In this document: one piece after another, positions 3,369-35,414 of the stretch
How the letters are laid out: each line of letters begins with the position of its first letter
How positions within the stretch are numbered: position 1 is the first letter of the stretch
Virus record (IMG/VR): IMGVR_UViG_2851933302_000004
DNA from: a virus
Lineage: Duplodnaviria > Heunggongvirae > Uroviricota > Caudoviricetes
Direction: 5' to 3' (one strand)
Length of the DNA: 40,715 bases
Notes under the pieces: generated by a model
Told to the model about the DNA's origin: nothing
Databases searched by the model: none
The model's input: only the letters and a program-made list of their open reading frames with translations
Made by a program: the position numbers and the translations under genes

Positions 3369-3395
3369 CCCGCAATATTTTGCGGGCTTTTTTTT
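3369..3395 (+). terminator. Hairpin plus T8 tract overlapping the tailspike stop codon; efficient only in plus orientation
   Basis: CCCGCAA-TATT-TTGCGGG followed by TTTTTTTT. Confidence 0.4.
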
Positions 3396-6300
3396 AACGT
3401 TCTTCCAGAGACTGAACCCGCTCTTTTATCTTATCCATTTCTCTGCGCTGCCATGCTGCCTCGATATAGAATAAGAGATCAGGTCTGACCCCCCATCTAG
3501 ATCCTGCTGGCGTTATTTCAACGCGCTCAATGATGTCTTCTATTACCATCACTGGATTATCATCCTCATCAACAATGATGCTCCCGTCATTATCAGTCAG
3601 CGGCATTTCCCTTTGGCCAGTAATGACGTCATCATATACTGCGGGATAATCGTCATAGCAAAGAAAGGCATAGCGGCATGTTGTGCTTTCTTCTTCCATG
3701 AGTCCGTGAGAAATAAGAACATCACGAAGTTGCTGCGCGATTACACCATGATGTATCCTCGCCCCTTCTTCCCCCTTTATAGCGACAGCGTTCAGCCATT
3801 TATAAGCGATATACCTGACGTCACCCCAGGCATCCAGCAATGCTTCGTCAGGAGAGACCGGCTCTGTCTTTAATGTTCCGTCACTGGTAACCACAGGATT
3901 GGAGCCAAGATAAACTGTCGAGAACCTGTTTCCCGGACCACCAAGAGCATTTACATTATCAAGATAAGGTTTAACATCTCCGTTCTCAAAAAGATGTTCG
4001 AGTGCGTTATATACCGCGCGACGTGGAGTACTGCTTCCGGAACCATGCAACGTTATCATTGCACCATCTGCTGAAGACGTTGTTTCACCGCCGCTAACGA
4101 TTAATCTCTGAGCGGTAACATCATCAGACGGTACTTTCTTCGCAATAATGGCGTAATTACCCTCAAGTTTGACTTCCGCGCGAACTTGTCCTGATGTACC
4201 TGCATGGACAGTCAGTGACTGGACGGCAACATCATCTGTGAAATCAACGGGTACAGGAACCGTCCTCACGCCTGACGTCGACATAAAAGTAGGAAGCGTT
4301 CTGTTAGGAGTGGCTCCGTAGACAAAATCCCTTGAAACAAATTCTTCCTGTTTAATTTTCACCCTGAAACAATACAAATCAGCCGGGTGACCATCGTGAA
4401 CATAAGGATATTTTCTGTTGTTATCCCCTATGCTCCATGGGTTTAGAAAGTCTTCCCCACCGAAAATGTAGTACAGCCAGTTGTCTTTGATACAAACTGA
4501 ACCAACACCAACCGCAGAGTTAACTATTCCGCCCTGATAAATCTGATCAGTAACATTAACCCACTCTACATTATCCAGACTCCACTCATTGACGTTAACT
4601 CTGGTCATAAATGTTCTTGGATAATTTCCTGCATAACGGTTATCAGGTTCTCCTCCTTCCCACTCACCAAATGCGCGCTCACTGCCAAAAATAATCAGCT
4701 CATCGCCAACTTTGGCAAAAGGAAGGTTTGAGTGATGAACATTATTTGGGAAGCGAAGAGAATTCCATGATGTACCTAAATCAGAGCTTCTGTGCAATGA
4801 ACTACCGGGTTGAGTACTTAATGTCCCCCTGGTCGTCAGATACAGAATGCCATCATAATATTTTACACATGGCTCAGATGCATTCGCCTCATATTCTGCA
4901 GGTATGCGTCTGCGAACAAAGCTACCAGGAGAACCGAAAGCATCAGAGAAATAGAGTATCCCAAGCTCGCGTGGACCAATATCACCATTATGGTAGCCAA
5001 CAGCAAAACTGTTATCGCTAATCGTCGCAAAACTGTGAATCTCAGTAACAGGAGTGCTTCCGTCAACAAAAGAAGGAATAGTTCCAAGACTGGTTTTTCT
5101 CCATGGTGACGAGTGAAATGATGTACCAAAACTCCAGTATCTACCCTCGTTATTCTGATCCACATCCTGGGTATTTTGCGTCGTAACTGTAAAAGTATTT
5201 TTATCAATAACAGTAGTCACCGTCATATTCCCGGTAACACCTGTAACACCAGAGTTTGAGAAGTTGACAAAATCACCAGCAAATAATCCGTGATCAGTAA
5301 TGCGAATATAAGCGACTTGCTGATTTGCTGCTTTCGTTATACCACCATAAACGCGAAGGCTGCGACTCATTGGGCGATCCCACAACTCTGCAACCTGCAG
5401 TTTATTTCCGCTCACGGTCCGCGTCTCAATTACAGCAAAAAGGCGATTTCTGACAACCCCCATACTCATGCAGTGATAGTTAACTGTGGGATAGTTTTCA
5501 TGTAAATCTGTAAGCCATTCCGGCGTTGTCCAGGTCTTCCCGTCATCTCCTGAGCGAACCCATGCAACATGGAGGTTATTTACACCATGGCGGTCTCCAG
5601 CCATAAAAGGCGCATAGATGACATTGTCATATACAAACGTTTTATCCTGCGTCCAGGCGTTGTACCACGGTGTATCTGTAATTTTAAATAACTCTCCCTG
5701 GATAAAATCTTCAGAAGCATAAAAAAGAGGCTGGCCCGGTATTCTCTCAAATAAAAAACGAGCATTTTTAAATCGACTGACATCCGGAAGAGTTGATACT
5801 TTAAAAGTAAGCCCTAATCCGTCAATTTTATAACCTGGAGATGAGGCTTCAAGGCACGCGCTTATTGCAGTGGAATCGTCATTTATACCATCACCAACAG
5901 CTCCAAAATCTTTGGGGCTAATAGCATCACGCATTTTATCCTGGAACGTTCGGTACACAGCCCCAGAACCATACTGAATAAACCAACCAAAACCACCAAC
6001 AACCCCGGAGATTGCAGCATCGACATAATTACGCATTGAGCGATTATTTACAGCGTCCTGCTCAAATGATGGATCTGCAAGGTTAGAAATTTTGTTTTGC
6101 TTTGCATCGTAATATTTTGCAAGCAAAGATGGTTTCATCAATGCACGTCTGAACCACCCAAAACATTGCTGGATCAGCATCGTCAGGTAGTCAAAGGCAT
6201 CTTCATGCACTTCGGGGAAAAATTTTCCCTGATTGCGAAGGTCTGTCTCCTGCACTACATCAAGCACACGATCTATCGTAATTCGCCATCCAGTAGCAAG

Positions 6301-6513
6301 CGGAGACGGAAGAACCACAGAACCGCCACTATAAGTGCCCGCCCCAGTTACCGTATAACCGGTATCCAGAACCAATTCTGTTACGTTTCCGTTCAGGTCA
6401 GACACCTGAACAACCAGGTCTGATTTTCTGAAAACTCGAAAAGTATACGGAAACGATGTCGTAACGCCGTTACCGGTGTATTCGTTGTGGTCAACTTCGG
6501 TTGAGACCGTCAT
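3394..6513 (-). CDS. Tailspike with endo-N-acetylneuraminidase (endosialidase, K1 polysialic acid depolymerase) domain and C-terminal intramolecular chaperone (autoproteolytic) domain
   Basis: 1039 aa; central region (ERIPGQPLFYASEDF..ITDTPWYNAW..NYHCMSMGV..SGDDGKTW) closely parallels recalled endosialidase catalytic domains of K1 phages; C-terminal S-D-G-x-L-K segment typical of S74 chaperone domains; distinct N-terminal particle-binding domain. Confidence 0.85.
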   Translation of the reverse strand: MTVSTEVDHNEYTGNGVTTSFPYTFRVFRKSDLVVQVSDLNGNVTELVLDTGYTVTGAGTYSGGSVVLPSPLATGWRITIDRVLDVVQETDLRNQGKFFPEVHEDAFDYLTMLIQQCFGWFRRALMKPSLLAKYYDAKQNKISNLADPSFEQDAVNNRSMRNYVDAAISGVVGGFGWFIQYGSGAVYRTFQDKMRDAISPKDFGAVGDGINDDSTAISACLEASSPGYKIDGLGLTFKVSTLPDVSRFKNARFLFERIPGQPLFYASEDFIQGELFKITDTPWYNAWTQDKTFVYDNVIYAPFMAGDRHGVNNLHVAWVRSGDDGKTWTTPEWLTDLHENYPTVNYHCMSMGVVRNRLFAVIETRTVSGNKLQVAELWDRPMSRSLRVYGGITKAANQQVAYIRITDHGLFAGDFVNFSNSGVTGVTGNMTVTTVIDKNTFTVTTQNTQDVDQNNEGRYWSFGTSFHSSPWRKTSLGTIPSFVDGSTPVTEIHSFATISDNSFAVGYHNGDIGPRELGILYFSDAFGSPGSFVRRRIPAEYEANASEPCVKYYDGILYLTTRGTLSTQPGSSLHRSSDLGTSWNSLRFPNNVHHSNLPFAKVGDELIIFGSERAFGEWEGGEPDNRYAGNYPRTFMTRVNVNEWSLDNVEWVNVTDQIYQGGIVNSAVGVGSVCIKDNWLYYIFGGEDFLNPWSIGDNNRKYPYVHDGHPADLYCFRVKIKQEEFVSRDFVYGATPNRTLPTFMSTSGVRTVPVPVDFTDDVAVQSLTVHAGTSGQVRAEVKLEGNYAIIAKKVPSDDVTAQRLIVSGGETTSSADGAMITLHGSGSSTPRRAVYNALEHLFENGDVKPYLDNVNALGGPGNRFSTVYLGSNPVVTSDGTLKTEPVSPDEALLDAWGDVRYIAYKWLNAVAIKGEEGARIHHGVIAQQLRDVLISHGLMEEESTTCRYAFLCYDDYPAVYDDVITGQREMPLTDNDGSIIVDEDDNPVMVIEDIIERVEITPAGSRWGVRPDLLFYIEAAWQRREMDKIKERVQSLEER

Positions 6514-6617: not shown

Positions 6618-6632
6618 TTACCTTTCAGGTAA
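6618..6632. promoter_or_regulatory. Operator-like palindrome TTACC-N5-GGTAA (copy 1) in the divergent region between tailspike and the LexA-box gene
   Basis: ATTACCTTTCAGGTAAT perfect inverted repeat; same motif recurs at 11 other positions. Confidence 0.5.
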
Positions 6633-6708: not shown

Positions 6709-6966
6709 ATGCAGCAGTATCACTATCCACTGGAAGACGGATTTACCGAAAGGATTCACACGCCGGGAGGCGTCAGGTCACTGGTGGAGGGATCGCACTT
6801 GATGAAATTACTCCGGGATCTCGATAAGGATGGATTTAATGTCGATGGCCCACTTGCCGAACTGACTGCACTGATTAACTACGTCACCAGCTCACAGATG
6901 TCTATGCAGGATCTGCAAACACATCTCGACTATTGTGCCGAACAATTACGAAAACAAACCCGGTAA
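6709..6966 (+). CDS. Small SOS-regulated protein, candidate antirepressor; shares a domain with the C-terminus of the Bro-N protein at 8352..9047
   Basis: ORF 6586..6966 trimmed to ATG 6709 (GGAGAAG RBS); LexA box immediately upstream; about 50 percent identity to the C-terminal 75 aa of the 231-aa Bro-N protein (LMKLLRDLDKDGFNVDGPLAELT vs LMNLLNQLQEDGHDVSGAAAELT). Confidence 0.5.
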   Translation: MQQYHYPLEDGFTERIHTPGGVRSLVEGSHLMKLLRDLDKDGFNVDGPLAELTALINYVTSSQMSMQDLQTHLDYCAEQLRKQTR

Positions 6967-7497: not shown

Positions 7498-7906
7498 CGT
7501 CGTAGAGCTCCTGAGCCATATCTTCGGCAGTGCGTGCAAACATCCTGCGCGAGATTGCATGAGATTTCTCGACGGACATCTTTGGGACCTCATGCATAAC
7601 ATTTTTGGGAGTTGTGTAATAGCCTATTACAATTTTCACACCTGACTTATGATTAATATCAGCATAATATACTTCTTGTTCAGACGTTTCACGACGAACA
7701 TAATCTGCCAGTTTTCCACATTTAAATTCCCCTCCCTGATGTTTTAAAATCTCCTCAACTGCACTATTTTCAGTGAAATACCGAATAAGAAATTTCTGTC
7801 CAGACTCTTCAGCATGAGGTATAACAGTATTATTGGAAGCCCGAACAATGGCCTTACTCAATATTTCATGGTCTTTATTTTTTTCTGATTTCCTCAAATG
7901 CTGCAT
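7487..7906 (-). CDS. Hypothetical protein with acidic C-terminal tail, upstream partner of the YafO-like gene (candidate antitoxin)
   Basis: ORF trimmed to ATG 7906; AT-rich; stop overlaps start of downstream gene. Confidence 0.4.
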   Translation of the reverse strand: MQHLRKSEKNKDHEILSKAIVRASNNTVIPHAEESGQKFLIRYFTENSAVEEILKHQGGEFKCGKLADYVRRETSEQEVYYADINHKSGVKIVIGYYTTPKNVMHEVPKMSVEKSHAISRRMFARTAEDMAQELYDDAE

Positions 7907-8067
7907 TACTGTAGCTCTCTTCGTGTTCACGGGCACCCCCAACTACCTCTAGGGTAAACATTCTATCGAAAGTATACGCATACTGGCAAAAAAATAGGCA
8001 GGTATTTTCTGAAATGGGATCAATCAAACCACATAGGGTTGAAATAACGTGAGTTATGCATTTATTA

Positions 8068-8082
8068 TTACCTTTGCGGTAA
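8068..8082. promoter_or_regulatory. Operator-like palindrome TTACC-N5-GGTAA (copy 2) about 270 bp upstream of the Bro-N gene
   Basis: TTACCTTTGCGGTAA; preceded by AACCACATAGG motif at 8027..8037. Confidence 0.45.
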
Positions 8083-8174
8083 ATTTACATCGCACTCCTC
8101 TTGTGCCATAGTAATCGGGCACTGGAAAAATCCAGTGCCGGGATTGGCGTCCCGGATTACTAAAAGGCGCATTC

Positions 8175-8196
8175 ACCGCGCAAGCGGTTTTTTTAT
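8175..8196 (+). terminator. Intrinsic terminator inside the 5-prime leader of the Bro-N gene (attenuator or end of a small RNA)
   Basis: ACCGC-GCAA-GCGGT hairpin followed by TTTTTTT. Confidence 0.5.
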
Positions 8197-8351
8197 GCGT
8201 ATAGCACGGCCACATTCGTATTATGGTGGGCTGTGTGGGGGCACCGAAAGGTGCGCCGGGTCCTTTTAGCCGGTTACGCCAACCCTGCACAGTTCACCAC
8301 CAACCGATTGGCGTCGGTAGTGGTGATTAACCAGACTAAAAGGTAACCACT

Positions 8352-9047
8352 ATGACAGCTACAAAAAGCACGTCCATTTTTTCTTTCGAATCCCAAGCCG
8401 ATATACGGGTAATCGTCATTAATGGTGAGCCATGGTTTATCGCTTCAGATGTTTGTCGGGCTATAGGCATAGCAAATCATCGAGATGCTGTTCGAAAACT
8501 TGATGATGATGAGAAGGGCGTCGCTTCAACCGACACCCCTGGCGGTGAGCAAGAATCGATCATCATCTCCGAGTCAGGCCTCTACACACTGATCCTCCGC
8601 TGCCGCGACGCAGTGACACCAGGCACTATCCCCTACCGCTTTCGTAAATGGGTTACAGGTGAGGTTCTTCCTCAGATCCGCCGCACCGGAAGTTACATTA
8701 AAAACTCGCTCCCGCAGGAAGAACGCATAAAGATGGTTGCCGACCAGGTAGCCAACGCCACAGCATCAGCAGTGATGCAGGCAATGAAGATAGAGAACAA
8801 AACCTACAGTGCCCCACTGAAGCCCGGCTACCGCAGCCTGATTCATTCGCCGTCTGGTGTTCTCGGCCTGACGGAGAACTCACTGCTGATGAATCTGCTG
8901 AACCAGTTACAGGAAGACGGGCACGACGTATCGGGCGCGGCGGCGGAGCTGACCACCATGTTCTGCTACATCGTCGGTGTGAGCAAGTGCCTGCGTGATA
9001 TCCAGACGCACGCGGAGTACATCAACGACAAGGCTGGGTTCTTCTGA
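8352..9047 (+). CDS. Bro-N domain protein with C-terminal antirepressor-like domain
   Basis: N-terminus FSFESQADIRVIVINGEPWFIASDVCRAIG is a classic Bro-N signature; C-terminus paralogous to the 85-aa SOS-regulated protein. Confidence 0.7.
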   Translation: MTATKSTSIFSFESQADIRVIVINGEPWFIASDVCRAIGIANHRDAVRKLDDDEKGVASTDTPGGEQESIIISESGLYTLILRCRDAVTPGTIPYRFRKWVTGEVLPQIRRTGSYIKNSLPQEERIKMVADQVANATASAVMQAMKIENKTYSAPLKPGYRSLIHSPSGVLGLTENSLLMNLLNQLQEDGHDVSGAAAELTTMFCYIVGVSKCLRDIQTHAEYINDKAGFF

Positions 9048-9113
9048 CGGGCGGCGGCACATGGATGTGCCTTTAAAATAATCATTGGCGATGTGATGTA
9101 GATTCGCGTAATA

Positions 9114-26745: not shown

Positions 26746-26822
26746 GTGGCATTAGCTCAGTTGGACAGAGCAACCGCCTTCTAAGCGGTTGGTCGCAGGT
26801 TCGAATCCTGCATGCCACGCCA
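26746..26822 (+). tRNA. tRNA-Arg (anticodon UCU), phage-encoded
   Basis: Cloverleaf folded by hand: 7-bp acceptor stem GTGGCAT/ATGCCAC, D-arm GCTC/GAGC, anticodon stem ACCGC/GCGGT with loop CTTCTAA, T-arm GCAGG-TTCGAAT-CCTGC, encoded CCA; resembles host argU with compensatory stem changes. Confidence 0.9.
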
Positions 26823-34829: not shown

Positions 34830-35414
34830 ATGAAAAGTATCCAGGACGTCCGCAGGCAAAATCTCAACGACTTGATCGACCGTGAATTCAATGGTGTTCA
34901 GACGCGGATGGCAGAAAAACTTGGAACTCAGGCAAATCTGGTAAACCGCTGGGCTCTTGGCAAGAAGGTTATCGGCGACCAGGTTGCGCGAAAAATTGAA
35001 GCTGCCGCCAATAAACCCCGTAACTGGCTTGATATCGATCGCTCGCTTTCTCAGGAAGGTTTTCAGCCTGTCGGCCCAAGCGACATTGGCCAGCTGGCGG
35101 CTCACAACCTGGAACGCTGGATGAGCGAAAGCCGCGACCTTTCAACACAGGGAAAACTTCACCGCGCATCCGGCGTCGCCCAGGTGACAATCAGCCGCCT
35201 GTTAAACAATGAGGTCAGCGTTTCCATTTCCACCCTGGAGAATGTTGCATCCGCATTCGGGCGTCACGGCTATGAATTACTGATTCACCCGCACGACCCT
35301 GCGACCATCAACTATGACCGCTCGCGCTACGCATTGTTACCCGAAACCGAGAAAGCAAAGATCGAAAGTTACATTGAATTTGTCATCAACCAGAACGAAA
35401 AAAACAAACAATAA
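34830..35414 (+). CDS. Prophage repressor with two HTH-like segments and no recognisable LexA-type autocleavage domain
   Basis: 194 aa; divergent from cro-like gene across operator cluster; no Ala-Gly or Ser-Lys peptidase segment seen. Confidence 0.6.
   Translation: MKSIQDVRRQNLNDLIDREFNGVQTRMAEKLGTQANLVNRWALGKKVIGDQVARKIEAAANKPRNWLDIDRSLSQEGFQPVGPSDIGQLAAHNLERWMSESRDLSTQGKLHRASGVAQVTISRLLNNEVSVSISTLENVASAFGRHGYELLIHPHDPATINYDRSRYALLPETEKAKIESYIEFVINQNEKNKQ

Follow-up and report, generated by a model that had tools for sequence, protein, structure and literature searches.

Why should an intrinsic terminator stand between a promoter and the antirepressor gene downstream of it? The question is raised by the leader of a Bro-N gene in the window, by which we mean the whole stretch of 40,715 nt of phage DNA that was analysed and to which all coordinates refer. 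An earlier note on this DNA had described a hairpin and a T7 tract in this leader, and had proposed that either a short RNA of roughly 100 nt ends there or Bro-N expression needs antitermination. We conclude, with a probability of roughly 0.7, that the region 8068-8351 forms an RNA immunity module in three parts, which is of the P1/P7 immI (c4) type and has the form first described for the isrK locus of Gifsy-1. Read in this way, the locus adds an ordinary example to a known kind of antisense-RNA system that keeps the antirepressor of a prophage untranslated.

Candidate promoters, predicted short RNA and terminator of the Bro-N leader

With at most one mismatch allowed, 14 copies of TTACC-N5-GGTAA are found in the window; 0.58 would be expected, and none of 100 shuffles has as many. 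The copy at 8068-8082 ends 270 nt before the Bro-N ATG at 8352, the distance that the earlier note had given for an operator copy, and its half-sites are kept in all relatives. This over-represented palindrome sits between two promoter candidates (Table 1). The upstream candidate matches the consensus at 10 of 12 positions in a consensus scan, and its final base (8068) is the first base of the palindrome; a -35 TTGnnn and a -10 TATnnT are found in unchanged register in three upstream haplotypes that have otherwise diverged among related phages. The second candidate (9 of 12 matches plus the TG in the scan; predicted start near 8117-8119) forms a block that is nearly invariant across 60 unique leaders, and the equivalent position is occupied by TTGACA-17-TATATT before the IsrK start in Gifsy-1 and by TTGACC-17-TATAGT (P1c4/P51b) in P1. 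We infer, by analogy with the operator Oc4/Op51 before P1 c4, that the palindrome at 8068-8082 would be bound by the phage repressor, for which an HTH_3 candidate at 34830-35414 is flanked by paired copies of the palindrome.

Table 1. Features of the Bro-N leader and gene, with positions in the window.
Feature	Position	Strand	Description
Upstream promoter candidate	8039..8068	+	-35 TTGAAA 8039-8044, 18-nt spacer, -10 TATTAT 8063-8068
Operator-like palindrome TTACCTTTGCGGTAA	8068..8082	.	presumed binding site of the main repressor of the phage
Second promoter candidate	8084..8112	+	-35 TTTACA, 17-nt spacer, TGn and -10 CATAGT
IsrK-family small RNA, about 76-77 nt	8119..8194	+	Rfam RF01394
Site a1, UUGGCGU	8144..8150	+	top of hairpin 2; complements c4 a' exactly
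Site b1, CUAAAAGG	8160..8167	+	linker of the short RNA; 100% complementary to c4 b' 8262-8269
Predicted intrinsic-terminator hairpin and U7 run	8175..8194	+	ACCGC-GCAA-GCGGU 8175-8188, U7 8188-8194
c4 antisense RNA, predicted mature 77 nt (GGUGGG...CACCACC)	8225..8301	+	aligned to the annotated P1 c4 ends
c4 b', CCUUUUAG	8262..8269	+	loop of the second c4 hairpin; complements b1 and b2
c4 a', ACGCCAA	8276..8282	+	single-stranded junction; complements a1 and a2
Hairpin CCGA-UUGGCG-UCGG presenting a2 (UUGGCGU, 8308-8314)	8304..8317	+	just 3' of c4
Site b2, CUAAAAGG	8336..8343	+	exact complement of 8262-8269; includes the Shine-Dalgarno AAGG
Bro-N antirepressor, 231 aa	8352..9047	+	Pfam PF02498 E 2.3e-21; PHROG 'anti-repressor Ant' 3.7e-63

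Between the palindrome and the Bro-N ATG (8068-8351), two Rfam families score above their gathering thresholds. One of them, the isrK Hfq binding RNA (RF01394), matches 8119-8194 over its whole model (1-77 of 77) at 76.7 bits (E 7.4e-15; gathering score 50). This IsrK-like RNA is made up of hairpin 1 (8119-8138), hairpin 2 (8139-8154) presenting a1, a single-stranded linker with b1, and the terminator; its minimum-free-energy fold has three hairpins (-30 kcal/mol, z -3.67), and in an alignment of 93 sequences the four predicted pairs of hairpin 1 all show compensatory changes on both sides. The model for the a1 and b1 targets of C4 (RF03163) gives 41.7 bits at 8106-8158, below its gathering score of 46.7, in a match that overlaps that of isrK, with the a1 and b1 sites themselves present; the threshold is exceeded in Gifsy-1 (48.1 bits) and P1 (51.0 bits). 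From homology to the Gifsy-1 start site, together with the promoter TTTACA-17-CATAGT, the short RNA is expected to span 8119-8194; a longer form, of about 120 nt, could come from the promoter at 8039-8068 that adjoins the operator. The part of the earlier proposal that stands is that an RNA very probably ends at the hairpin, as in the IsrK family, but its length of about 100 nt should be changed to about 77, or possibly about 120 nt. The antirepressor gene lies 157 nt downstream of the IsrK-like RNA.

The hairpin at 8175-8196 consists of ACCGC, GCAA and GCGGT followed by the T run and then an ATG. In the consensus scan, 8175-8188 has a 5-bp stem with four G-C pairs, a GCAA loop and a T-rich tail, with an energy of -7.5 kcal/mol; the stem can be closed by the first T of the T7 tract (8188-8194). 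As a bare pattern it is not unusual: 15 terminator-like sites were found in 6 kb, against 6.0 +/- 2.2 in shuffles. We nevertheless consider the terminator to be real, because the isrK covariance model covers the hairpin (E 7e-15), homologues keep it and the T-run columns are conserved. A hairpin with a T run was found in 87 of 93 unique homologous upstream segments, in 31 hairpin forms with 20 different stem sequences, and the T-run columns are invariant or nearly so (at least 90%) in the 93-sequence alignment. Close relatives have three versions of the stem and retain the T run. The terminator that had been read in the Bro-N leader is hence upheld by its sequence, by the isrK model and by its conservation in homologues. 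It should be noted that RNAalifold on the MAFFT alignment of the 93 upstream segments recovered hairpin 1 alone, with the terminator stems out of register, and therefore a search for hairpins in each sequence was used.

A second property of the terminator is its weakness. Family-wide, the stems are short (5-8 bp, -4.5 to -9.7 kcal/mol), and a weak hairpin with a T run lies between the first set of sites and c4 in 109 of 125 unique modules. Most likely, judging from its homologues, the hairpin at 8175-8194 would serve both as the 3' end of the short RNA and as a leaky gate for transcription of c4 and Bro-N; termination itself has been demonstrated for the Gifsy-1 homologue (PMC4825925). A 'putative rho-independent terminator' was already annotated in the matching stretch upstream of the Bro-N gene in the GenBank record of phiV10 (DQ126339.2). 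A function of the hairpin on the minus strand was considered and rejected: the only pattern on that strand, at 8181-8167, is weak and does not coincide with the end of a minus-strand gene. The genes that point leftward begin at 7942 and lead away from the hairpin at 8175-8188.

A predicted antisense RNA and its co-varying target sites

The other family is the C4 antisense RNA (RF01695), which matches 8219-8304 on the plus strand over its whole model (1-87 of 87) at 77.7 bits (E 1.1e-13; gathering score 45). The c4 RNA folds well (-45.6 kcal/mol, z -4.70), and its mature ends were placed by way of the P1 c4 annotation (L083, 10344-10420), which, like the mature form predicted here, is 77 nt long. 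The c4 segments CCTTTTAG and ACGCCAA have their complements within two exact repeats, ACTAAAAGG (8159-8167 and 8335-8343) and GATTGGCGTC (8142-8151 and 8306-8315). Within these, b' (8262-8269) is the exact complement of 8160-8167 and 8336-8343, and a' (8276-8282) that of 8144-8150 and 8308-8314; in a longer comparison, 8141-8150 and c4 8276-8285 are complementary at 9 of 10 positions, of which a 7-nt core is exact. The a2 site is shown in a hairpin loop, the same presentation as that of a1, and b2, which overlaps the Shine-Dalgarno sequence of Bro-N, ends 8 nt before its ATG. The earlier note missed this main regulator (8219-8304) and the two pairs of target sites, one of which includes the Bro-N Shine-Dalgarno sequence. 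Its comparison with RNA-level control of antirepressors in other phages is supported.

Comparisons of the module drew on three samples: 60 unique leaders of Bro-N relatives, 93 unique upstream segments and 125 unique modules from viral contigs. Among the sister phages represented by the 60 leaders, each site exists in three versions, and all three copies of a site co-vary. For b1, b' and b2, the types are CUAAAAGG / CCUUUUAG / CUAAAAGG, CUACAGAGG / CCUUUGUAG / CUACAAAGG and CUAAGUGG / CCACUUAG / CUAAGUGG; for the a site and a', they are UUGGCGU/ACGCCAA, UUUGCAC/GUGCAAA and UUGGUCU/AGACCAA. The a and b types occur in five combinations in these leaders. In the sample of 125 modules, 121 have at least one inner c4 segment that is exactly complementary both upstream and downstream, and 75 have two, against about 8 of 125 for triple complementarity in a shuffled control. 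These modules comprise 15 a' types and 25 b' types in 32 combinations; the pairing of b' with b2 is at least as long as that with b1 in 119 of the 125, and the start codon mostly lies 8-10 nt past the end of b2. Exact-match tables serve as the evidence here; a 5x5 matrix of RNAduplex pairings between c4 and target regions has a weak diagonal and is confounded by stem-to-stem pairing.

The RNA leader with the full module is kept in all 79 viral loci that encode a Bro-N relative. The Bro-N protein has no homology to Gifsy-1 AnrP (BLASTP E 23) and no similarity to P1 Ant1 (E 0.11), so that the antirepressors with which the RNA module is combined are unrelated. A conserved leader peptide, or an ORF of the orf45 type, was sought and rejected: the frame opened by the c4 AUG has 35 codons here, 14-28 in the sister classes and 14 in P1. 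The sole ORF in the right place (8223-8330) leaves 21 nt to the ATG and is not kept by sister phages, and a Pfam search of the small leader ORFs gave no match.

Known systems, proposed mechanism and alternatives

The closest known counterpart is the Gifsy-1 locus isrK-orf45-anrP (Hershko-Shalev et al. 2016, PMC4825925), which has the same order of Rfam isrK, C4 and antirepressor, the same a-type specificity (UUGGCGU/ACGCCAA) and the same distance from promoter to hairpin 1. As is proposed for the window, the mapped Gifsy-1 short RNA has its 3' end at a leaky terminator of its own, and the antirepressor is translationally silent until the short RNA is abundant (PMC4825925). The two loci differ in their b specificity (AUCACCG in Gifsy-1, CUAAAAGG here), in their unrelated antirepressor proteins, and in that translation in Gifsy-1 proceeds via an ORF of 45 codons, which is opened by the c4 AUG and overlaps with the start of anrP. 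G28 and G31 of Gifsy-1 IsrK pair with C162 and C159, as demonstrated by compensatory mutation (PMC4825925); the former map to a1 and the latter to the a' of Rfam c4. The authors compared the downstream RNA with P4 CI and did not describe it as c4 (PMC4825925).

In P1/P7 immI (P1, NC_005856), the order is again the same: operator, tandem promoters, a1 in a hairpin loop, b1, a hairpin with a U run, c4, a2, and b2 over the ribosome-binding site. Specificity resides in a' and b' in both cases. Differences in a' and b' make P1 and P7 heteroimmune. Unlike in the window, b2 of P1 covers the ribosome-binding site of icd, through which ant is expressed; here the icd-type upstream ORF of the c4 family is absent, and c4 targets the Shine-Dalgarno sequence of the antirepressor itself. 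P1 also differs in that b1 and c4 are separated there by a hairpin with a loop of 12 nt and U5 only, where a canonical terminator is found here, in that the isrK model gives 35 bits, below the gathering score of 50, and in being a Punavirus plasmid prophage and not an integrated Uetakevirus. In the temperate podovirus P22, the sar antisense RNA of immI represses the translation-initiation region of ant and is made from the strand opposite its target. The regulator described here differs from sar in lying in tandem on the same strand and in using two short loop pairings, and sar has no Rfam or sequence relation to the locus.

Two other systems show more partial likenesses. The APSE phages of Hamiltonella (PMC7313666; LR794150.1) have the order isrK, c4 and Bro-N, by annotation alone, with APSE-3 annotated in this way. 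Their specificities differ from those of the window, and their site triplets, AUUCGCAU / AUGCGAA and CUAAACAGG / CCUGUUUAG, are present. The APSE authors named the loop and the junction a' and b', respectively, opposite to the P1 usage, and did not link isrK to the upstream target copies (PMC7313666). In the immunity of satellite P4 (CI RNA, seqA, seqC), a small RNA processed from a leader likewise pairs with two flanking complements, and P4 CI was named as a structural analogue in the IsrK paper (PMC4825925); as summarized there, it differs in acting by premature transcription termination and not by masking a ribosome-binding site.

Based on these comparisons, we propose the following mechanism. 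Transcription would start at one or two promoters beside the repressor operator (8039-8112), and many transcripts would end at the weak terminator at 8175-8194, yielding an IsrK-like RNA of about 77 nt with a1 and b1. Read-through transcripts would include c4 (8225-8301), which is presumably excised from the precursor as in P1. Because no separate c4 promoter was matched between 8195 and 8223 in the promoter scan and c4 lies 3' of the terminator, read-through must occur in lysogens for immunity. The b' loop and the a' junction of c4 would pair with b2 (8336-8343) and a2 (8308-8314) and, as b2 is the Shine-Dalgarno sequence of Bro-N, translation of Bro-N would be blocked and the prophage repressor left unopposed. 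The short RNA, with both sites, would compete for c4, so that its accumulation would free the ribosome-binding site and the antirepressor would be made. The terminator would then be both the 3' end of an anti-antisense (target-mimic) RNA and a valve setting the ratio of the mimic to c4 and mRNA.

For this locus, the processing of c4 and the activation by the short RNA via c4 titration are what we infer from its counterparts. Termination, read-through, activation in trans by short IsrK and the a1:a' pairing have been demonstrated in Gifsy-1 (PMC4825925). P1 c4 is an antisense repressor of ant (Citron and Schuster 1990, according to the account given in PMC8198154), and the P1 record annotates b2 as the target for repression of icd/ant translation. 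The RF03163 score for the a1 and b1 targets, being below its threshold, counts against the proposed mechanism, and so do two observations in Gifsy-1: a1 mutations in cis raised, and did not lower, expression (Table 1D, PMC4825925), and a co-expressed c4-containing region failed to relieve IsrK toxicity (PMC4825925). The effect of the a1 mutations is not predicted by pure titration and suggests that the read-through RNA also adopts another fold within the molecule. Mechanistic details may also differ because the coupling ORF of the icd or orf45 type is not conserved here.

The short RNA could instead be a free-standing Hfq-dependent sRNA acting on host mRNAs, with its place before Bro-N being incidental. 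The name of its Rfam family, isrK Hfq binding RNA, and its 3' end in a U run agree with this, since many Hfq-dependent sRNAs end in this way. Nonetheless, we regard this as very improbable: its two loop or single-stranded segments copy the sites downstream of c4 exactly and co-vary with c4 in every specificity class, which one would not expect with targets in the host, and the full module is kept by 79 of 79 Bro-N relatives. Little credence is likewise due to an attenuator, in which Bro-N would be expressed only with a phage antitermination factor (N-, Q- or put-like). It is true that the terminator separates promoter and gene, and that transcriptional fusions in Gifsy-1 rise 8-fold when IsrK is supplied (PMC4825925), but the weak stems throughout the family fit constitutive leakiness, and the Gifsy-1 promoter alone, with no factor, gave 280 units of downstream transcription with translation off (PMC4825925). 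With downstream transcription on and translation off, the control point in Gifsy-1 is translation. Uniformly weak hairpins and partial read-through in Gifsy-1 in the absence of an added factor (PMC4825925) thus speak against the earlier suggestion that Bro-N needs dedicated antitermination, as does the read-through that immunity would demand in lysogens.

More weight, although still as an unlikely explanation, has to be given to a switch in cis of the type described for Gifsy-1, in which the read-through RNA folds on itself (a1:a', b1:b') into a silent form that the short RNA opens in trans, and c4 is a structural element of the mRNA leader and not a processed trans-acting repressor. Structures A and B of Gifsy-1 were published with native gels, and the changes G28A and G31A in cis raise basal translation 20-50 fold (PMC4825925). 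The entire leader in the window also has a much more stable fold than its shuffles (-122.7 kcal/mol, z -6.15), and the 3' strand of c4 (8294-8300), being complementary to 8320-8326 as well, allows alternative helices. Against this, the c4 part matches the P1/P7 RNA family, which acts as a 77-nt antisense repressor (PMC8198154); a stable processed RNA, STnc1160, is found downstream of IsrK in Salmonella (PMC4825925, PMC7067206); b2 is the Shine-Dalgarno sequence of Bro-N itself; and the orf45-type ORF, which the Gifsy-1 model needs, has only 14-28 codons in sister phages. A further helix of the long leader fold, 8109-8116 with 8155-8162, shows only wobble changes in relatives and is missing outside the clade. 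It should be noted that the switch in cis and the trans-antisense model are not mutually exclusive.

Wider meaning and occurrence of the module

The c4-type reading of the window may extend further. We tentatively propose, at somewhat less than even odds, that IsrK-type RNAs in general are the terminated a1/b1 region of c4 modules, acting as c4 target mimics and not forming an independent sRNA family, and that this three-RNA switch is shared by many lineages of temperate phages, with leakiness as its set-point and loops as orthogonal barcodes. If this is true, mimic, antisense RNA and ribosome-binding site would make up a common switch whose set-point is given by the leakiness of the weak terminator; the recognition loops would diversify in concert, giving dozens of mutually orthogonal 'immunity barcodes', with at least 32 combinations in this sample; and co-resident prophages would control their antirepressors without cross-talk. 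The role of a1 and b1 is annotated as 'putative' in the P1 record, and a 2025 review gives IsrK and c4 as separate systems. No paper tying IsrK to c4 target sites was found in the literature searched. The comparative data join the work on Salmonella IsrK and on P1 c4, which that literature treats separately. The upstream a1 and b1 sites and the weak terminator are thereby given a concrete, testable role, and the co-varying specificity types should determine which prophages cross-regulate each other's induction.

With respect to annotation, the window gains an isrK-like and a c4 ncRNA gene as well as four target sites that would control the antirepressor. The module is under-annotated, as the RefSeq and GenBank records have no ncRNA annotation at the locus, although similar sequence is present in 934 of 5426 complete E. 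coli genomes. An identical copy (100%) of the prophage is carried by E. coli IHE3034 and by several further complete genomes of this species. The phage that hosts the module is an endosialidase-bearing Uetakevirus prophage.

The isrK/c4 RNA pair and its pairing sites

An Rfam scan of the whole window returned adjacent, full-length matches to isrK and to the C4 antisense RNA (c4), both over the curated thresholds, in the leader of the Bro-N gene (see the table). Over the isrK match lies another, to 'a1, b1 targets of C4', that stays below its own threshold (41.7 vs 46.7 bits), and isrK and c4 both fold far more stably than when shuffled (z -3.67 for isrK, z -4.70 for c4). Repeat analysis revealed two copies each of GATTGGCGTC (8142-8151 and 8306-8315) and ACTAAAAGG (8159-8167 and 8335-8343), to which the c4 junction ACGCCAA and the c4 hairpin loop CCTTTTAG, respectively, are exactly complementary. 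The site names a1, b1, a', b', a2 and b2 follow the annotated P1 record. The gene product is a Bro-N protein (Pfam E 2.3e-21) that also matches the PHROG 'anti-repressor Ant' families (3.7e-63), and the phiV10 record names its Bro-N gene product 'putative anti-immunity protein'. Either c4 processing or a cis-fold of the Gifsy-1 type may depend on two alternative helices; P1 has an analogous alternative pairing, CCUGCCACC / GGUAGCAGG.

Features of the window and, in the last three rows, c4/Bro-N cassettes of viral contig IMGVR_UViG_3300045988_096329
Feature	Position	Strand	Remarks
Promoter candidate 1	8039-8068	+	TTGAAA-18-TATTAT; -10 abuts operator-like palindrome; consensus scan
Operator-like palindrome	8068-8082		TTACCTTTGCGGTAA
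Palindrome copies (15-nt)	6618, 7943, 8068, 9114, 26409, 29555, 29573, 32367, 32429, 34375, 34712, 34760, 35472, 35534		All 14
Promoter candidate 2	8084-8112	+	TTTACA-17-TGn-CATAGT; consensus scan
isrK (RF01394)	8119-8194	+	76.7 bits vs threshold 50
a1	8144-8150	+	Complement of c4 a'
b1	8160-8167	+	Complement of c4 b'
Terminator	8175-8196	+	ACCGC GCAA GCGGT, T run, then ATG
C4 antisense RNA (RF01695)	8219-8304	+	77.7 bits vs threshold 45
b'	8262-8269	+	c4 hairpin loop
a'	8276-8282	+	c4 junction
Alternative helix	8294-8300/8320-8326		UCACCAC (3' strand of c4 basal stem)/GUGGUGA, just past a2 hairpin
a2	8308-8314	+	Complement of a'; in loop of hairpin 8304-8317
Alternative helix	8318-8324/8346-8352		UAGUGGU/ACCACUA; overlaps A of start codon, puts b2/Shine-Dalgarno in loop
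b2	8336-8343	+	Complement of b'; includes AAGG Shine-Dalgarno, 8 nt before ATG
Bro-N gene	8352-9047	+
Candidate HTH_3 repressor gene	34830-35414
Cassette, locus L018	~1260-1510	+
Cassette, locus L065	~270-560	-
Cassette, locus L065	~1215-1510	+

The -35 and -10 positions of the upstream promoter candidate are retained in three diverged haplotypes, and the downstream candidate occupies exactly the place of the mapped Gifsy-1 IsrK promoter and of P1c4 in P1; the consensus scan found no promoter match for c4 itself downstream of the terminator. The pattern TTACC-N5-GGTAA (at most one mismatch) has 14 copies in the window vs 0.58 expected, scattered over the genome in a layout reminiscent of P1 with its many C1 operators. 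Pairs of copies flank the candidate repressor gene and also occur near replication genes. The operator copy, the hairpin with its T run and the Bro-N gene are thus all present as the earlier note had described them, according to the sequence itself, the consensus scan, the palindrome count and Pfam/PHROG.

Conservation of the terminator and co-variation of the sites

The consensus scan scored the hairpin as terminator-like (GCAA loop, 5-bp stem with 4 G-C pairs, T-rich tail), and such sites number 15 in the 6 kb scanned vs 6.0 +/- 2.2 in shuffles. Taken as a pattern alone, the terminator does not stand out, and its reality must therefore rest on other evidence. It is exactly the third hairpin of the isrK match, and the phiV10 GenBank record carries the annotation 'putative rho-independent terminator' in the corresponding segment ahead of the Bro-N gene. 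The leader from operator to start codon is kept in all 79 viral-contig loci encoding Bro-N relatives (75-100% identity), and the three stem versions found in close relatives (ACCGC/GCGGU, GCCGC/GCGG(U) and CCACG/CGUGG) are each followed by T7-8. A broader sample of 125 unique genuine modules was assembled from an exact-pattern scan of viral contigs with the c4 5' half and from the loci already collected; in 109 of them a GC-rich hairpin adjoins a run of at least five Ts between the first site set and c4. The terminator hairpin was found in 87 of 93 unique upstream segments, in 31 forms with 20 different stems, all of them short (5-8 bp, -4.5 to -9.7 kcal/mol), and the T-run columns of the alignment are invariant or nearly so (>=90%). 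The retention of hairpin and T run across modules indicates that the weak terminator is a conserved part of the module and not a peculiarity of the window phage. A perfect 10-nt inverted repeat, TATACGCATA (7973-7982) / TATGCGTATA (8194-8203), links the divergent promoter region and the sequence just past the T run, and may be due to chance.

Among 60 unique leaders of close relatives, the recognition sites occur as discrete alleles whose three copies always change together. The b1/b'/b2 alleles are CUAAAAGG / CCUUUUAG / CUAAAAGG (the window's type), CUACAGAGG / CCUUUGUAG / CUACAAAGG and CUAAGUGG / CCACUUAG / CUAAGUGG; the a1/a'/a2 alleles are UUGGCGU/ACGCCAA/UUGGCGU, UUUGCAC/GUGCAAA/UUUGCAC and UUGGUCU/AGACCAA/UUGGUCU, and five a and b combinations were observed. 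Because the flanking sequence is nearly identical, this concerted change provides direct evidence for pairing of c4 with the two sets of sites. In the broad sample, at least one inner c4 segment of at least 6 nt has its reverse complement both upstream and downstream in 121 of 125 modules (about 8 when the inner segment was shuffled), and two such segments were found in 75. The modules comprise 15 a' types, 25 b' types and 32 combinations; b' pairing reaches further at b2 than at b1 in 78, equally far in 41 and less far in 6, and the start codon mostly lies 8-10 nt past b2.

The three cassettes on the 41-kb contig differ in specificity. The a1 of the minus-strand cassette (UUGGCGU) mismatches the cassette's own a'/a2 (AGACCAA/UUGGUCU) and matches the c4 of both neighbours, and the ORF runs for just 91 aa before a stop; this cassette could represent either a recombinant capable of cross-talk or a chimera from assembly.

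Known systems and the proposed switch

Gifsy-1 has the same order as the window: isrK, a C4 match (69 bits; NC_010392, 34131-34214, minus strand) that is the 'orf45'/STnc1160 region, and the antirepressor gene STM2616 (anrP). Gifsy-1 IsrK ends at its own terminator, partial read-through yields an isrK-orf45-anrP mRNA that is transcribed yet untranslated, and IsrK in trans raises anrP translation 139-fold; C162 and C159 of 'orf45' pair with G28 and G31 of IsrK, and downstream of IsrK there is also STnc1160, a stable RNA that arises by processing (Hershko-Shalev et al., PMC4825925). These authors likened the system to the P4 CI RNA, without reference to c4 (PMC4825925). When the published numbering is applied to the Gifsy-1 sequence, G28/G31 map to a1 and C159/C162 to a' of the c4 matched by Rfam, and the first AUG of orf45 is the one found at the 5' end of c4, so that Gifsy-1 helix b-I is the a1:a' pairing. 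The APSE-3 record is likewise annotated with isrK, c4 and Bro-N in this order (PMC7313666).

In P1, the annotation comprises operator Oc4, promoters P2c4 and P1c4, a1 (in a hairpin loop), b1, c4 (77 nt), a2, and b2 covering the ribosome-binding site of icd, with the upstream a1/b1 sites labelled just 'putative'. Between b1 and c4 lies a hairpin (CCGCAG, 12-nt loop, GCGG, then U5; NC_005856, 10278-10318) to which the isrK model aligns with 35 bits, below its threshold; P1 may thus make a terminated a1/b1 RNA as well, of which no report is known. Protein comparison showed no similarity of the window Bro-N protein to Gifsy-1 AnrP or P1 Ant1; judged by sequence, the cargo proteins are unrelated and the RNA module is a portable cassette. 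The window differs from P1 in having no icd gene and from Gifsy-1 in lacking a conserved frame of the orf45 type (35 codons in the window, 14-28 in sister classes), and c4 is therefore expected to act on the antirepressor's own ribosome-binding site.

The best explanation, to which we assign a probability of about 0.7, is a terminated short RNA, a c4 that masks the Bro-N Shine-Dalgarno, and relief of this block by the short RNA. Transcription would start from one or both of the promoter candidates flanking the palindrome, and many transcripts would stop at the weak terminator, giving an RNA of ~77 nt (or ~120 nt from the upstream promoter) with a1 and b1. Read-through transcripts would contain c4, with a mature form predicted at 8225-8301 by alignment to the P1 ends; c4 would pair with a2 and b2, and the short RNA would compete for a' and b'. 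Termination and relief are proposed by analogy with the Gifsy-1 homologue, for which they have been shown, and masking through a2/b2 by analogy with the role reported for P1; pairing at all sites is supported by co-variation, and we infer that c4 is processed, that the operator functions as one and that activation works by titration.

Of the two options in the earlier note, that a short RNA ends at the hairpin gains support from the full-length isrK match and the Gifsy-1 homologue. That Bro-N needs antitermination finds none, as the stems are uniformly weak and the Gifsy-1 block is translational, with read-through occurring without an added factor; c4 is encoded past the terminator and has no matching promoter to itself, so that immunity depends on transcription continuing through the hairpin. 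As an explanation, a read-through RNA that folds on itself is an unlikely rival to the short-RNA switch. Such a fold probably contributes, given that a1 mutations in cis raise expression in Gifsy-1 (PMC4825925), a rise that a simple decoy model does not predict.

The module as such is already known: both RNAs belong to curated families, the Gifsy-1 locus has been dissected experimentally, P1 is a textbook immunity system, and isrK-c4-Bro-N is annotated in APSE. The window's module is an unannotated instance. The papers that could be searched treat IsrK and c4 as separate systems, and none joining them was found. The co-variation and the Gifsy-1 mutations mapping onto a1 and a' suggest, tentatively and at slightly less than even odds, that IsrK-type RNAs are the terminated a1/b1 region, a c4 mimic, in a widespread switch with many orthogonal specificities; if true, this is possibly a new point, of moderate interest.

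The phage and its relatives

The window phage is a Uetakevirus, whose leader is 100% identical to that of phage TL-2011b and of a prophage of E. coli IHE3034; 7900-9100 is 95.6% identical to phiV10. The 1039-aa tailspike (3394-6513, minus strand) combines an epsilon15/phiV10-type N-terminus, a complete endosialidase (End_beta_propel, E 1.4e-233) and an S74 chaperone domain, which indicates a predicted specificity for the K1 (polysialic acid) capsule and fits the match to the prophage in IHE3034, a K1 strain. Sequence similar to 8060-8360 occurs in 934 of 5426 complete RefSeq E. coli genomes, in up to 3 places per genome. Among the phage and E. coli records listed, none annotates an RNA gene under the match and the E. 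coli ones give only the Bro-N CDS; in these records the pair is systematically unannotated in RefSeq E. coli.

A tRNA-Arg (anticodon TCT) lies at 26746-26822 (+) (ARAGORN; Rfam 73.3 bits). An ORF of 85 aa (6709-6966, +) that is homologous to phiV10p24 and epsilon15p19 shares 42% identity (E 6e-19) with residues 150-223 of the Bro-N antirepressor, its C-terminal domain. This ORF has its own operator copy upstream (6618-6632), without an RNA module; its product could be another small protein of the antirepressor type or could compete with the Bro-N antirepressor.
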